This document shows, in pieces, positions 33,341 to 36,724 of a DNA stretch of 64,000 bases. A program made the translations under genes and the position numbers. Within the stretch, counting starts at the first letter, position 1; every line of letters begins with the position of its first letter. Origin of the DNA: Candidatus Moranbacteria bacterium GW2011_GWE2_35_2- (GTDB lineage: Bacteria; Patescibacteriota; Minisyncoccia; Moranbacterales; UBA9337); NCBI GenBank assembly GCA_000990585.1, contig LBQD01000002.1, positions 120,016 through 184,015 of the forward strand. Direction: 5' to 3'. The notes below the pieces were generated by a model, which searched no databases, was not told the DNA's origin, and saw only the letters and a program-made list of their open reading frames with translations.

Positions 33341-33399
33341 CTTTCTATAATTAATGAAAAAGAAATTTTAAAATTTTTTAAAACAATTGGGCGATAGCC
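33341..33399 (-). promoter_or_regulatory. 57-bp repeat R1 copy A, upstream of the MTase remnant (also found at 39747-39802)
   Basis: CTTTCTATAATTAATGAAAAAGAAATTTTAAAATTTTTTAAAACAATTGGGCGATAGCC matches the second copy at ~54/57. Confidence 0.7.
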
Positions 33400-33404
33400 C
33401 AAAA

Positions 33405-33548
33405 AAGAAAAGGAATATTTCAGCTAACGTATCGCAATATCTGACGTTTCGTCACCACTTTTAAATTATAACATAGAGTGACGAAATGTGGCTTTAGCCC
33501 TTGCAGATATTGCGTGTTAGCTGATGTATTAAAAAATTCTTTTCGGCT
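33405..33548. mobile_element. palindromic MITE-like element P1 (imperfect TIRs ~40 bp, internal nested palindrome)
   Basis: Left end ATATTTCAGCTAACGTATCGCAATATCTG; right end CAGATATTGCGTGTTAGCTGATGTATT...AAAAAATTCTTTTCGG. Confidence 0.6.
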
Positions 33549-33565
33549 TTTGCCTTTAGGCAAAA

Positions 33566-33595
33566 GATTTAATCGGGGCAAATTTATTTTTATTT
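33566..33595. repeat. cassette D left inverted repeat GATTTAATCGGGGCAAATTTATTTTTATTT (partner at 34317-34347, 29/29)
   Basis: The exact reverse complement lies directly upstream of the gene D start codon. Confidence 0.85.
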
Positions 33596-33622
33596 CTTAC
33601 TAAAATAATTGTATAAATATTG

Positions 33623-34309
33623 TTAATTGCTCTGGTACTCTGGTAATCCTGTTTTTTTCAGGCATTCATTTTGCAAATTTATACTTAATTTCGAACATTT
33701 TGACGAACATTTCACCCAGGCTTCATTATAATCATTAATCATTTTTTCAGTACGTTCAGATGGAAATGGTAGTGTTGAAAGACTCTTTTCACAATCTTCA
33801 AGACAATTAGTCGCTTCAATTGGTTCTTTATTACACTTTTCAATAGCATCGTTGTTTGCTCTTAGCAATGGTGCGTTTTGCCACCCGCGAACAGTAGCAA
33901 AAGCAAAGCTGGAAATATCAAAAATAATTATAACCGATAAAAATAATATAAAGTATTTTTTCCAATTTTTCGTATTGATATAACGCCCAATAAAAAAAGC
34001 AGGAATCAAAAATGTTATCGCCATTGCCAAGCTTACTATTAAGGTTCCAAACATGTTAAATGTGGGAAAACCAAAATAGTCAGTTGTAGCATATCCAATC
34101 GGTAAAAAACTGAAAAACTTGCCATATACCATATAAAGCAGAAAAGAAAATGGGGAGAATAAGGTATCAAATATGTAAAACGGAGAGTTCAACCAGATAT
34201 CATTAGGGTTTAGTAGCCATGACTCAAAAAGTTCCTTGGTACCACTAAAAATAATCCAAATAAACAATAAAGATTGTGTTGTTGATAATTTCAGTTTTTT
34301 TTTATTCAT
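33623..34309 (-). CDS. hypothetical multi-TM membrane protein with Cys-rich extracytoplasmic C-terminus (cassette D)
   Basis: 228 aa ORF bounded precisely by a 29-bp IR pair. Confidence 0.55.
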   Translation of the reverse strand: MNKKKLKLSTTQSLLFIWIIFSGTKELFESWLLNPNDIWLNSPFYIFDTLFSPFSFLLYMVYGKFFSFLPIGYATTDYFGFPTFNMFGTLIVSLAMAITFLIPAFFIGRYINTKNWKKYFILFLSVIIIFDISSFAFATVRGWQNAPLLRANNDAIEKCNKEPIEATNCLEDCEKSLSTLPFPSERTEKMINDYNEAWVKCSSKCSKLSINLQNECLKKTGLPEYQSN

Positions 34310-34316
34310 GTTTTTA

Positions 34317-34347
34317 AAATAAAAATAAATTTGCCCCGATTAAATGC
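34317..34347. repeat. cassette D right inverted repeat (abuts the ATG of gene D)
   Basis: AAAATAAAAATAAATTTGCCCCGATTAAATG is the reverse complement of 33566-33595. Confidence 0.85.
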
Positions 34348-34348
34348 C

Positions 34349-34566
34349 CGAAGGGTCGAAAAGAATTTTTTAATATTTCAGACAACGTTTCGGCACATGC
34401 GAAGTTGCGCCGTGGATTATTGATTAACTTTTAATATTCACTTGCCTCTATTATATAACTAAACTTGCCATTTCGTCAGCGCAATTTGGGAGAGGAAATT
34501 TTGCACTCCCTGGAATATATTTACGCAAAATTTCTGAACCGCATGTGCCGTGTTGTCTGATGTATT
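34349..34566. mobile_element. palindromic MITE-like element P2 carrying an outward promoter (TGACGA-17-TATAAT on minus strand) toward cassette D
   Basis: TIRs CGAAAAGAATTTTTTAATATTTCAGACAACGTTTCGGCACATGCG and CGCATGTGCCGTGTTGTCTGATGTATTTTTTCAT. Its centre is shared with P3 (GAAGTTGCGCC...CAGCGCAATTTGGG). Confidence 0.65.
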
Positions 34567-34663
34567 TTTTCATCTTCTACCTTAATTGCACAAACTTTAC
34601 TTTGCGCAAAGAAAATTTGATTTTTTAAATTAAAAGTTTTTGTTTTGCCTTTAGGCAAAACAG

Positions 34664-34692
34664 ATTATTTGGGGCTATTTTTTATTTTTTAC
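34664..34692. repeat. cassette E left inverted repeat GATTATTTGGGGCTATTTTTTATTTTTTAC (partner 35819-35848)
   Basis: Near-perfect reverse complement directly upstream of the gene E ATG. It is preceded by the hairpin TTTTGCCTTTAGGCAAAA, which is also found before the cassette D repeat. Confidence 0.85.
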
Positions 34693-35817
34693 AAAAATTT
34701 GTCCTCTGCCTATCCACTCAATCAATTCATTGGCTTGAGAATCAATGTTTGAAAGAAGCTCTGGATAACAGGGTTGTAATTCAGCATTAAAAATCAGCAA
34801 ATCCTTTAATCCGTGTGCGTAGTCAAATCCTATCTTTTCGCAATTCTGTAAAAATTTTCTTCTGAAAGGTATCAGTTTTTCTTTTCGTGAATCAGATACA
34901 ACCGAAAAAGTTTTCATATCCGCTACAATTCTATGAAAAACTCGCAATAATTCCATTGTAACTCGACAAAGCTGGACGTCCGAGCTACCAGTAATTTCTG
35001 AAAATTTTGTAATCAGTGGCATGATGTGATCGGCTTCATAGGCCTTGTCTGAGTTGTTTACCAACATTAACAGCCTTTCTAAACCTACAACTGAAAATGA
35101 CCAAAAATTTTCCCAGCGAACCAAATCAACAACTGTGTCATTCTCGTAAATAGGTCTCCATAACAAATTTTCGATTGAAGCGATATCCAACGGCTCACTC
35201 AGGTTGTCAGTTTTATACAAAATTTCATTCCTATATCCCCACGCAACTGGCGGGGTAAAGTTTAGAGCTAGTAGAGTTGTCCTCGTTTTGTCCGGTATAA
35301 ATTGCTCTTCATTGATTCCAAATTCTTTTGCAATCCCAATGAATGGGTCAGCCTCGATATTTTTATCAAACTTATATTTTCCAGCGGTTATTTCTTCAGC
35401 TTTTCCGCCCGATAAATATGAAATAACGAAGCGTTTTGGCTCTAGCCCCAACTCATTTATCAAAAACTCGAAAATTTTTCTGATAGTAAAATCGGCGATG
35501 TCTTTGCGTTGCTCATCTGCAATATCTTTTCCACCAATAAAGCCCGACACATCAGCCATATCAAAAAGCAAAAGATGAGTATCATCCATGGCATCATTGA
35601 AGTCATTAACTCTTATGACTTGCTGAATTGTTGAAAAGTTGTAGGCCTCAGAATTGTCTAGATAATTACCGAATTTTTCAAGAAATGGTCCTTCGCCAAA
35701 ACTTATGTTGAAATTTCCAGGAAATCCCTTGTTCACGATTAAAGAATGAGGAATTTTTTGAGTTCCCTGAAATTTAGAAAAATTTTCAATTTTATTCCTT
35801 AACTCTAAATATTTCAT
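34675..35817 (-). CDS. alanyl-tRNA synthetase catalytic-core paralog (class IIc aaRS-like, 380 aa, degenerate active site), cassette E
   Basis: Co-linear similarity to the AlaRS N-terminus (FSKFQGTQKIPHSL, QQVIRVND...THLLLFDMADVSGFIGG, WENFWSFSVVGLERL, LRVFHRIV). The motif-2 loop RAGGKHNDLENVG is replaced by RVNDFNDAMDD and the VDTGMGLER segment by SVVGLER. The alignment is made from memory. Confidence 0.6.
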   Translation of the reverse strand: MKYLELRNKIENFSKFQGTQKIPHSLIVNKGFPGNFNISFGEGPFLEKFGNYLDNSEAYNFSTIQQVIRVNDFNDAMDDTHLLLFDMADVSGFIGGKDIADEQRKDIADFTIRKIFEFLINELGLEPKRFVISYLSGGKAEEITAGKYKFDKNIEADPFIGIAKEFGINEEQFIPDKTRTTLLALNFTPPVAWGYRNEILYKTDNLSEPLDIASIENLLWRPIYENDTVVDLVRWENFWSFSVVGLERLLMLVNNSDKAYEADHIMPLITKFSEITGSSDVQLCRVTMELLRVFHRIVADMKTFSVVSDSRKEKLIPFRRKFLQNCEKIGFDYAHGLKDLLIFNAELQPCYPELLSNIDSQANELIEWIGRGQIFVKNKK

Positions 35818-35818
35818 A

Positions 35819-35848
35819 AAAAAAATAAAAAATAGCCCCCAAATAATC
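35819..35848. repeat. cassette E right inverted repeat (abuts the ATG), followed by hairpin CCCGCCGTAGGCGG
   Basis: AAAAAATAAAAAATAGCCCCCAAATAATC. Confidence 0.85.
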
Positions 35849-35935
35849 CCGCCGTAGGCGGAAAAACTTTTAATTTAAAAAATCAAATTTTCGTCTTTAT
35901 TCATTGCACAGAATCTGAAATTACCACCAAAGATG

Positions 35936-36065
35936 AAAAAATATTTCAGACAACGTTTCCGAATATCTGAAGTTGCGCCCATATTTGTTGGCTAAAACTT
36001 CAAACATTCACCTATTTTGATTATATCACCAAATCTTACTTTATCATAGCGCAATTTGGGTGGAG
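35936..36065. mobile_element. truncated P-element copy P3 with promoter TTGCGC-18-TGaTATAAT (minus strand) toward cassette E
   Basis: The left TIR ATATTTCAGACAACGTTTCCGAATATCTGAAGTTGCGCC and the centre are conserved; the right TIR is absent. Confidence 0.55.
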
Positions 36066-36099
36066 CAAAAGAAAAATATAGAATAATTCTCCTTATTAT

Positions 36100-36124
36100 T
36101 AGTGCCCTTTTGAAATTTTTTTGG
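36100..36124. repeat. cassette F left inverted repeat TAGTGCCCTTTTGAAATTTTTTTGG (partner 36517-36539)
   Basis: 20/22 reverse-complement match; flanks a one-gene module with its own promoter and terminator. Confidence 0.8.
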
Positions 36125-36219
36125 CGTGGTCTTGACAGGCTGACTATTTTCTGCTATACTATTTTGAACACTAATTTTGGTGTCAAATTGTACCTACACA
36201 ATAAACAAAGGAGACTGAA

Positions 36220-36447
36220 ATGAGTTCAGAAAACTTACTTCTAGCGATGGTTTGGGTGCTTTCTGGCTTGTTTGTTGCATTCATAATGCACAAGGCTGAC
36301 GAAAGTAAGAGCGAAAATTACAAAGGAAATTATTGGCTTAAAAACAGCCGTCATCTAGAAATCATCGTTTTTAATATCGTTCTTCTCGCGCCACTCGCTC
36401 TTATTTTTGGCATAGCCGCAATGATGGACTATGTCAAAAAAGAGTAG
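36220..36447 (+). CDS. small hypothetical membrane protein (75 aa, 2 TM), cassette F
   Basis: Promoter TTGACA-17-TATACT at 36133-36161, RBS AAGGAG, and terminator CCACC...GGTGGTTTTTTT at ~36466-36510. Confidence 0.6.
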   Translation: MSSENLLLAMVWVLSGLFVAFIMHKADESKSENYKGNYWLKNSRHLEIIVFNIVLLAPLALIFGIAAMMDYVKKE

Positions 36448-36516
36448 GCTATAACAGAGCTCTGTTCGCACACAAGCCACCCCGGGACTCTTTCTCGAGG
36501 TGGTTTTTTTCTTTTC

Positions 36517-36539
36517 TAAAAAATTTCAAAAGGGCACAA
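36517..36539. repeat. cassette F right inverted repeat AAAAAATTTCAAAAGGGCACAA
   Basis: Reverse complement of 36100-36122. Confidence 0.8.
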
Positions 36540-36724
36540 TTTAAATAAAAAATTATTCTATATTTTTCTTTTGCGTAACCAGATACACAGTGTGAGTTGA
36601 TGTATTCCTTTTATTTTTTCCGAATGCTGTCGGAATTGTTTTTAAAAATTTTAAAATTTCTTTTTCCGTTTTGGATTTTGGGCAGAGGGAAATTAAAGGG
36701 GTGAATGCCCGAAGCCCAAAACTC

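Follow-up and report, generated by a model that had tools for sequence, protein, structure and literature searches.

A probable decayed and recombinase-less array of integron-like gene cassettes in a Candidatus Moranbacteria chromosome

In sedentary chromosomal integrons, a tyrosine recombinase gene diverges from an array of co-oriented cassettes, with an outward promoter and an attI site beside it, and the cassettes, whose cargo is rich in restriction-modification (R-M), toxin-antitoxin and other defence genes, are separated by imperfect palindromes (attC sites) with an invariant AAC...GTT, stems conserved in structure and variable in sequence, unpaired bases and a variable tip, each site moving with its upstream cassette. 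Decayed arrays without an integrase are known as clusters of attC sites lacking integrase (CALINs). An insertion specific to the integron integrase, IntI, has been described as necessary for integron recombination (PMC9668308, PMC8138268). Integrons are known chiefly from Proteobacteria, and Gammaproteobacteria hold 93% of the complete ones in the IntegronFinder 2.0 survey (PMC9024848). The literature covered, which included that survey, the archaeal-integron paper and a classification of tyrosine recombinases, with subscription journals mostly outside its scope, yielded no account of integrons or of arrays resembling them in Patescibacteria, the candidate phyla radiation (CPR). The stretch analysed here (the window; 64,000 nucleotides of contig LBQD01000002.1, positions 120,016 to 184,015 of the forward strand) comes from Candidatus Moranbacteria bacterium GW2011_GWE2_35_2- and is a segment of bacterial chromosome with tRNAs, tmRNA, type IV pilus genes and ligA. 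An island of about 9 kb within it (Table 1) is interpreted, with a probability of roughly three in four, as a decayed, recombinase-less, CALIN-like array of mobile cassettes from an integron-like system that is widespread in Patescibacteria.

The island is set apart by a GC content of 0.24-0.35 and a GC skew reversed relative to its flanks, and contains four cassettes (the remnant of an Eco57I-like R-M system, cassettes D and E, and a HaeIII R-M cassette with a HEPN gene) together with a small module, F, lodged in the third of its palindromes. On the minus strand, along which the genes are read, every unit has the order head (5'), gene or genes, tail (3') and palindrome, the last being termed P. 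In a scan of the whole window, inverted pairs with more than about 86% complementarity were confined to positions 33356-39791, the rest being AT-rich matches at 70-80%, and matches to an nhmmer profile of the P element likewise fell solely in the island. At Rfam gathering thresholds the window yields only tRNAs and tmRNA, and neither P nor the frames formed by head and tail match a known RNA family.

The bracketing of genes D, E and F by inverted repeats, noticed earlier in a reading made from the letters of the window alone (the sequence-only reading), is real. The arms around gene D (33567-33595 and 34317-34345) are complementary at 29 of 29 positions, those around gene E (34663-34690 and 35821-35848) are complementary save for a 1-nt indel, and those of F match over 57 nt at 86%; the spacers between arm and start codon (7 nt in D, 1-2 nt in E) and the TTTTGCCTTTAGGCAAAA hairpins at 33548-33565 and 34643-34660 are also as described there. 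The 22-30-bp repeats of that reading are present, but in D and E they are just the inner stretch of terminal repeats about 75-140 nt long, and the F pair is longer than given. Gene D has a second, outer pair (33516-33545 and 34357-34386) with 87% complementarity and a perfect inner 18 nt, gene E has an outer pair (34611-34641 and 35862-35892) complementary at 31 of 31 positions, and the head as a whole is the reverse complement of the tail, from the GTTNNNNGAAAT (head) and ACATCNNNNAAC (tail) boxes inward for about 75-140 nt. The left arm, placed previously some 30-40 nt after the stop codon, overlaps the 3' end of the open reading frame (ORF) in E. Compared with the 7 bp of R''/R' complementarity at the ends of integron cassettes, these inverted repeats are long, the head/tail match spanning a median of 71 nt (range 9-102) in 14 non-redundant cassettes from other genomes and up to about 140 nt for E in the window.

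Head and tail can nevertheless be told apart by a fixed AA versus TG dinucleotide beside the R box, by a small GC hairpin that is different on either side and, in E only, by a side-specific block of about 35 nt. The arms start exactly at the recombination boxes and are continuous with P. They are not particular to the gene they enclose, as had been supposed, but are generic frames: E-type and D-type frames surround unrelated cargo genes in other loci (relatives are designated L with a number), the D-type frame being found also in L069, and more than 60 other loci have heads near-identical to that of the truncated Eco57I-like cassette. Within the window, the A-type frame appears as a 73-nt direct repeat (33327-33399 and 39730-39802) with an inverted copy at 36634-36666, and a 33-nt repeat that brackets the HaeIII cassette recurs upstream of the truncated Eco57I-like methyltransferase. 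Both of these cassettes had been missed by the sequence-only reading, which found the three modules D, E and F. A higher-order unit around D, E and F, suggested by the repeat at 33356-33388 and 36634-36666, was considered and rejected, as the tail of one A-type cassette here pairs with the head of the next.

The P elements between the cassettes resemble an attC site in layout: the R'' box (...NNNNAAC) and the R' box (GTTNNNN...) are outermost, an L stem of 11 bp lies inside them, and two hairpins make up a variable tip. AAC and GTT are shared by every element in an alignment of P (30 of 30), and the R boxes have conserved outer flanks (ACATC and GAAAT) that set them apart from those of integrons. 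The L helix is paired in 95.7% of cells, a percentage that is partly circular since the 30 elements were pre-selected for L-box complementarity; eight pairs vary on both sides, and there is no G-U among the 11 L-box pairs (n = 30). For P elements located by position only, after A-type tails, pairing is 11 of 11 in 17 of 25 cases, and the distinct pairs have on average 10.2 of 11 positions paired, versus 7.6 with shuffled partners (maximum 9.3 in 1000 shuffles). The asymmetries of P are also conserved, comprising R-to-L spacers of 1 and 4 nt, a bulge of 2 nt that follows L' and the AA/TG mismatch next to the R box, and its geometry differs from that of classical attC sites, in which the two spacers are about 5 nt each. 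The generic P finder misses sites and returns many AT-rich false positives, and only the 1/4-spacer and palindromic classes were used. The single-stranded segment between the two tip hairpins, CCACCCAWATT, is almost invariant across genomes (alignment columns 50-62; for example window 36040-36064, minus strand).

By appearance, the first two P elements of the window are intact and the third is decayed. In P1, L'' (CGCAATATCTG) and L' (CAGATATTGCG) pair at 11 of 11 positions and TGTTATAAT lies in a tip hairpin; in P2, L'' (CGGCACATGCG) and L' (CGCATGTGCCG) pair equally well. In P3, R'' reads CTCAC instead of CTAAC, L'' and L' pair at only 7 of 11 positions, and the element, taken previously for a unit preceding F, is split, with the F module sitting inside its hairpin 1. 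Hairpin 2 is enlarged in both P2, where it bears CTGACG-18-TATAAT (34479-34450, minus strand) directed toward D, and P3, where promoter-like hexamers (36047-36020, minus strand) point toward the next gene. The F module has a strong promoter-like TTGACA-17-TATACT of its own (36132-36160, plus strand), followed by an AAGGAG ribosome-binding site, and at 36477-36510 a hairpin and T run that resemble a terminator. Promoter-like hexamers of the kind ascribed to the P elements by the sequence-only reading are present in P2, in P3 and before F, but promoter-bearing P elements are a minority variant, and promoter-like sites overall (24, versus 30.8 expected in shuffled sequence) are not in excess, single sites being only suggestive. 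Sites that hold promoter-like inserts or a whole small gene module, and cassettes with three genes, of which the window has two, are unlike the compact and mostly promoterless cassettes of integrons.

The features of a complete integron (intI, attI and a promoter beside the array), which are absent from the window, have counterparts in related loci. Among the clustered ORFs of such loci, the protein that recurs most often near the arrays, in 21 loci, is a tyrosine recombinase of about 270 amino acids (266-284 aa) with the Pfam domains PF00589 (Phage_integrase) and PF13495 (SAM_4 N-terminal), and the recurrent neighbours include no transposase. The best NCBIfam model for this protein is TIGR02249, integron integrase (225.5 bits, under the cut-off of 265), followed by XerA (207) and XerD (180), and the closest solved structure is that of VchIntIA, the Vibrio integron integrase (2a3v; E = 7e-50). 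As in sedentary chromosomal integrons, the recombinase gene is divergent from the cassette genes, its start being separated by 77-282 nt from the head of the first cassette. Between the two, seven distinct loci have a TTGCAT-17-TACAAT-like sequence directed toward the cassettes, followed by AGTTTGGATAAAAAC-NN-GTTNNNNGAAAT, an attI-like site that resembles the 3' half of P.

The end signatures of the cassettes also follow integron-type logic. Within R', the four variable nucleotides complement the R'' of their own P in only 9 of 94 elements, whereas the R' of one P matches the R'' of the next (the chain rule) in 20 of 42 consecutive detected P elements, compared with about 1 in 256 by chance. 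In addition, the kinds of L box found beside A-type tails are few (17 in 51; 3.1 bits) and those beside A-type heads are many (36 in 42; 5.1 bits). This linkage of P to the tail without linkage to the head indicates that P travels with the upstream cassette and that exchange occurs on the R' side, as in integrons; the comparison points to a crossover in R' and to an attC-like P owned by the cassette upstream in gene direction, not to a leader of the following cassette as P had been understood before. Differences between two near-identical genomes are placed accordingly: the flanks of the L141 and L142 arrays are 99.6-99.9% identical, while the arrays themselves (L141 9387-9776 versus L142 6242-9753) are distinguished by about 2.6 kb of cassette DNA (DUF218 and a protease) immediately beside the recombinase-proximal P and by about 0.5 kb further in, with a 132-aa gene, the two sequences diverging right after a common GTTAT.

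Relatives of the frames are numerous. A 24-base pattern taken from the frame of the R-M cassette has at least 120 matching stretches in DNA representing one genome per species, nearly all of them in Patescibacteria and spread over many classes, and no match in viral contigs; genes other than D, E and F are bracketed alike in related CPR genomes, as the sequence-only reading had proposed to establish by comparison. Heads and tails each keep a near-identical form over about 130-170 nt in the frame-matching genomes, and at the head this conservation ends exactly at CAGCTAAC, beyond which lies either a P arm or unrelated DNA. The E cassette, with the same head and tail, is found among different neighbours in L014 (Candidatus Uhrbacteria; 79% amino-acid identity), in an array where similar palindromes separate about six other cassettes, also bracketed, whose cargo includes a methyltransferase, DUF805, NUDIX and a HicA pair. 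Homologues of E in two other genomes are ordinary chromosomal genes without repeats; one of these, 75% identical (L016 10001-11131), lies between mraY and murD in the dcw/mur cluster, where the flanking repeats are absent. By inspection of aligned heads and tails, cassette frames are about 90-100% identical across CPR classes, whereas the recombinases are only 37-82% identical, which indicates that the cassettes move while the platform diverges. The identity of 80-98% among the top recombinase matches, considered at one point as a sign of horizontal spread, was dropped in view of the cross-class range. Shared frames and P elements, the adjoining IntI-like recombinase and attI-like site, and cassette content that varies between near-identical genomes together support the earlier suggestion of a modular, mobilisable, integron-like system.

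The taxonomic reach of the frames extends, by label, beyond the CPR. Contigs assigned to Altarchaeum/Altiarchaeales, Methanoregula, Methanosarcinales, Gammaproteobacteria and Thermodesulfobacteriota (the last a contig of 1.5 Mb) also carry the frames with their full conserved flanks, through either mis-binning or real spread across phyla or domains; these loci include L037, L119, L112, L085, L086, L025 and L089. A match in Shewanella decolorationis (L065) was discarded as a chance AT-rich match, the conserved flanks being missing. In L014 (4519-4552, 5385-5425 and 7320-7360) and L141 (about 9890-9925) there are also cargo-free 'cassettes', in which the first 12-19 nt of a head and a tail enclose a loop of 3-13 nt and which may be remnants of deletion between inverted repeats.

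Several observations weigh against the proposed reading. The recombinase has no counterpart of VchIntIA residues 211-240 in the alignment, and hence lacks the IntI-specific insertion of about 30 aa. The chain rule is obeyed in fewer than half of the consecutive detected P elements, although failures that span several kilobases probably reflect missed sites, and in the window itself cassette D violates it, with a head (GTTGTCT) and tail (AGCTAAC) whose end signatures mismatch. The absence of an integrase or transposase from the window, already stated by the sequence-only reading, is upheld: no tyrosine recombinase was found in the 64 kb by tblastn (best E = 0.03), the window ORFs of at least 150 aa contain no recombinase or transposase domain, and the platform sequence, the promoter-like part beside the recombinase, is unmatched anywhere in the window, neither it nor a recombinase following the remnant at the end of the array (39803-39935). 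Variation of the cassettes within their own population, whose absence the sequence-only reading had named among the outcomes that would count against it, is not seen, the island being 99.7-100% identical in 13 assemblies of the same population (from NCBI, ENA, JGI and Logan), with invariant cassettes and the differences outside the repeats. Furthermore, nearly all the evidence comes from metagenome-assembled genomes, and the case for recombination, a folded DNA substrate and circular intermediates is indirect.

The missing intI, attI and promoter make the window at best CALIN-like, that is, a cluster of attC sites lacking an integrase. Its decayed parts and its invariance in the population are those of a stranded, decaying array, which is probably no longer mobile; the invariance fits such an immobile array and is no proof that the system as a whole is non-mobile.

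Since the enzyme is devoid of the IntI insertion, the rival to be taken most seriously is a host dimer resolvase of Xer type (one lone Xer in the manner of XerS or XerH, whose site is beside the gene) acting at a dif-like site, the cassettes then being exploiters akin to pdif modules or to integrative mobile elements exploiting Xer (IMEX). The good scores of the recombinase to the XerA, XerD and XerC models, its names in the source databases (XerD or integrase, in a family of at least 6997 clusters at 90% identity below 1e-30) and its identity range among the CPR classes, such as vertical descent could produce, are all in keeping with such a role. An Xer enzyme can use a folded single-stranded site, as in the CTX phage, which forms tandem arrays at dif, so that an Xer-family enzyme without the IntI insertion could act here as well on a folded hairpin in imitation of a duplex site. 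Candidate phyla have Xer-related recombinases that were grouped as 'Cand' (PMC8138268), a subgroup listed alongside class-specific enzymes that possibly compensate for Xer function, and the present family may belong to it. However, the integron integrases are the best matches, and the gene lies in varied contexts (near parAB, as in L141 at about 3.5 kb, near dnaG-rpoD or near mur genes) with a constant sign of GC skew across the recombinase locus in L141, L142 and L144; nor is the window array at a skew switch. The L boxes vary yet covary in pairing, which is the mark of a structure-specific site rather than a fixed 11-6-11 dif sequence, and inspection of the window and of L014 revealed no 11-6-11 dif-like site. 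The pdif (XerC/XerD) modules of Acinetobacter, although they too are arrays of small modules bracketed by inverse sites and carry toxin-antitoxin and resistance genes, depend on the host XerCD and on single 28-bp double-stranded sites common to neighbouring modules, in contrast to the hairpin-forming unit of 80-200 nt with covarying arms that separates the cassettes here and the dedicated recombinase that adjoins the related arrays; and compared with IMEX, the cassettes are gene units of 0.3-4 kb and include no phages. The dimer-resolvase explanation is accordingly judged quite improbable.

An action at the RNA level, in which the paired repeats would be segments of the 5' and 3' untranslated regions that hide the start region or form an RNase III processing stem, as in the hok fold-back or in rRNA processing stems, is considered unlikely. 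The arms do come within 1-7 nt of the D and E start codons at one end and reach or overlap the stop codons at the other, in the manner of the 5'-3' fold-back of hok/sok; the leaders of D and E are AU-rich and have no clear Shine-Dalgarno sequence, and the promoter-like hexamers of P2 and P3 lie upstream of the 5' arms, which would thus be transcribed. Yet complementarity of this kind, common to unrelated genes, beginning exactly at the recombination boxes and running into P, is unlike that of hok/sok. It is also Watson-Crick only, as seen in the L-box pairs, and head/tail mismatches show no excess of the type that wobble pairing on the sense strand would tolerate (8, versus 27 of antisense type, of which 20 are (A,G), the conserved AA/TG dinucleotide included), and F has its promoter and terminator inside its arms. 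A nested RNA structure with rRNA-like processing stems was set aside, given that the frames surround unrelated cargo and are continuous with the recombination boxes. An RNA-level role could coexist with the role in DNA. Terminator-like sites are enriched in the region (10, versus 4.1 +/- 2.2 expected), and five of the ten are small hairpins of the frames (those of the E head and tail, the D head, and the A-type head and tail), each followed, in the direction into the cassette, by the T-rich inner arm; because of this enrichment it is possible that the frames, besides their role in DNA, act as insulators or regulators of the cargo.

The two alternatives based on inverted repeats alone are given very little credence. 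Nested transposons with terminal inverted repeats, or miniature inverted-repeat transposable elements (MITEs), with captured genes and a transposase encoded elsewhere, would account for the long terminal repeats of each cassette and for the 'empty' units consisting of repeats only, both of which are also features of MITEs and foldback elements. No target-site duplications flanking the cassettes were found, however, no transposase is encoded in the window or among the recurrent neighbours, and the ends are recombination boxes continuous with attC-like sites, with complementary 4-nt signatures at the cassette ends and a P linked to the upstream cassette, as befits site-specific recombination; MITE transduplication, one of the origins suggested earlier, is not supported. 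Just as improbable is phase variation by invertible segments, in which the repeats would flip genes relative to an outside promoter. Perfect repeats of 29-31 bp around D and E with promoter-like sequences outside them, and the opposite orientation of F, are in keeping with such a switch, but the orientation is identical in all 13 independent assemblies, the orientation of cargo relative to head and tail is constant in other genomes, and the head, which can be told from the tail, always lies on one side of the cargo and the tail on the other.

If the island is indeed a decayed array of integron-like cassettes, the complete element would consist of an IntI-related tyrosine recombinase of about 270 aa, a promoter-like sequence directed away from the recombinase, an attI-like site and the cassettes. 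Recombination would take place at the R' side of P, the next cassette retaining its own GTTNNNN start. In an excised circle, tail, P and head would be contiguous and could fold or extrude into a long rod with P at its tip, which would lengthen the attC-like stem far past the 7 bp of classical integrons, and the recombinase would act on this folded DNA. A model junction of the D tail, P1 and the D head has a predicted DNA fold of -74 kcal/mol, compared with -18.7 +/- 3.0 for shuffled sequence (z = -18.8).

The cargo of the island varies in its state of preservation. Cassette 4 comprises ORFs at 31061-31504 and 31631-32623 and a truncated N6-methyltransferase (32791-33402), with an intact A-type head (33327-33428) ending in GTTAGCTGAAATATT; its tail and P are lost, the tail being present in the copy of L140. 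The 330-aa protein of 31631-32623 belongs to no Pfam family, matches the PADLOC candidate defence family PDC-S18 (E = 6e-16) and is 91% identical to the product of a gene in the same cassette of L140. Gene D encodes a 228-aa membrane protein of no known family, and gene E a 380-aa protein that is weakly AlaRS-like (Pfam tRNA-synt_2c, E = 0.0068) and has no match in a PDB sequence search. Gene F (75 aa) has hydrophobic stretches that suggest two membrane helices and no homologue among the relative loci compared, and a PADLOC search gave no match for D, E or F. Cassette 1 consists of an A-type tail (36592-36724), HEPN_Apea (36725-37708), a C5 methyltransferase (37712-38689), the HaeIII endonuclease (38692-39672) and an A-type head (39673-39802) without its terminal 30 nt or so. 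In its leader (39673-39700), AAGAGGAAAAATGTAA represents a Shine-Dalgarno-like sequence followed by a start codon and, directly after it, a stop codon.

Table 1. Positions in the window of the cassette array, its cassettes and its attC-like sites.
Feature	Positions	Strand	Description
Whole island, decayed cassette array	31040-39935	genes on minus	Flanked by lspA (30524-30979) and comM (40115-41671)
Cassette 4, Eco57I-like R-M remnant	31062-33428	minus	Pfam Eco57I / N6_Mtase; 31062-33305 87% identical to L140 4961-7199
P1, attC-like site of cassette D	33414-33530	minus	R'' 33516-33530, R' 33414-33428; full-length nhmmer match, E = 6e-11
Cassette D	33516-34386	minus	Tail 33516-33595, gene D 33623-34309, head 34317-34386
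P2, attC-like site of cassette E	34372-34566	minus	84% identical over 193 nt to L112 3638-3830
Cassette E	34552-35954	minus	Tail 34552-34690, gene E 34675-35817, head 35820-35954
P3, decayed chimeric attC-like site of HaeIII cassette	35940-36606	minus	Arms 35940-36064 and 36575-36606; compared with P of L014 (4427-4519)
F module	36065-36574	plus	57-nt inverted arms 36065-36121 and 36518-36574; gene F 36220-36447
Cassette 1, HaeIII R-M and HEPN	36592-39802	minus	Pfam; head and tail align to conserved forms
Degenerate P arm (GTGAATCCGCTGATATGAGAAGTT) and possible attI-like remnant (GTTATTATGCGAAACTT, about 39903-39925)	39803-39935	minus	Resembles alpha arms and attI-like strings elsewhere

Two further repeats lie outside the island. 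At 1913-2082, the 3' end of tRNA-Arg(gcg) and the following 29 nt form a perfect 46-nt tandem (1969-2014 and 2022-2067) with a partial third copy after it, which looks like a stack of attachment-site remnants of a tRNA-integrated element. The other is a direct repeat of 172 nt (80%; 14058-14229 and 14495-14666) in two adjacent small ORFs that follow the type IV pilus genes and are probably paralogous pilin-like genes.

The system to which the array is assigned works like an integron, yet it lacks two of the defining features of integrons, namely the IntI-specific domain and compact cassettes in which only 7 bp at the ends are complementary, and its hosts are Patescibacteria. About as likely as not is the broader proposal of a phylum-wide gene-capture system of Patescibacteria, possibly shared with some co-occurring archaea, that is related to integrons yet distinct from them, with a recombinase devoid of the IntI-specific domain and frames that make a rod, that moves defence genes such as R-M systems between distant CPR classes, whose recombinases are only about 50% identical, and that maybe represents an intermediate between Xer and IntI. 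Such a recombinase would be missed by standard integron searches, because its score falls under the curated cut-off and the domain searched for is absent. If the proposal holds, cassette capture of the attC type, presumably on folded DNA, needs no IntI-specific domain, and a second structure-specific recombination system would be available for engineering. The odd repeats of the window would then be explained as the scaffolding of mobile cassettes, stranded without their recombinase, and an integron-like platform common to the CPR would, if true, explain the exchange of defence genes among these tiny, host-dependent bacteria.

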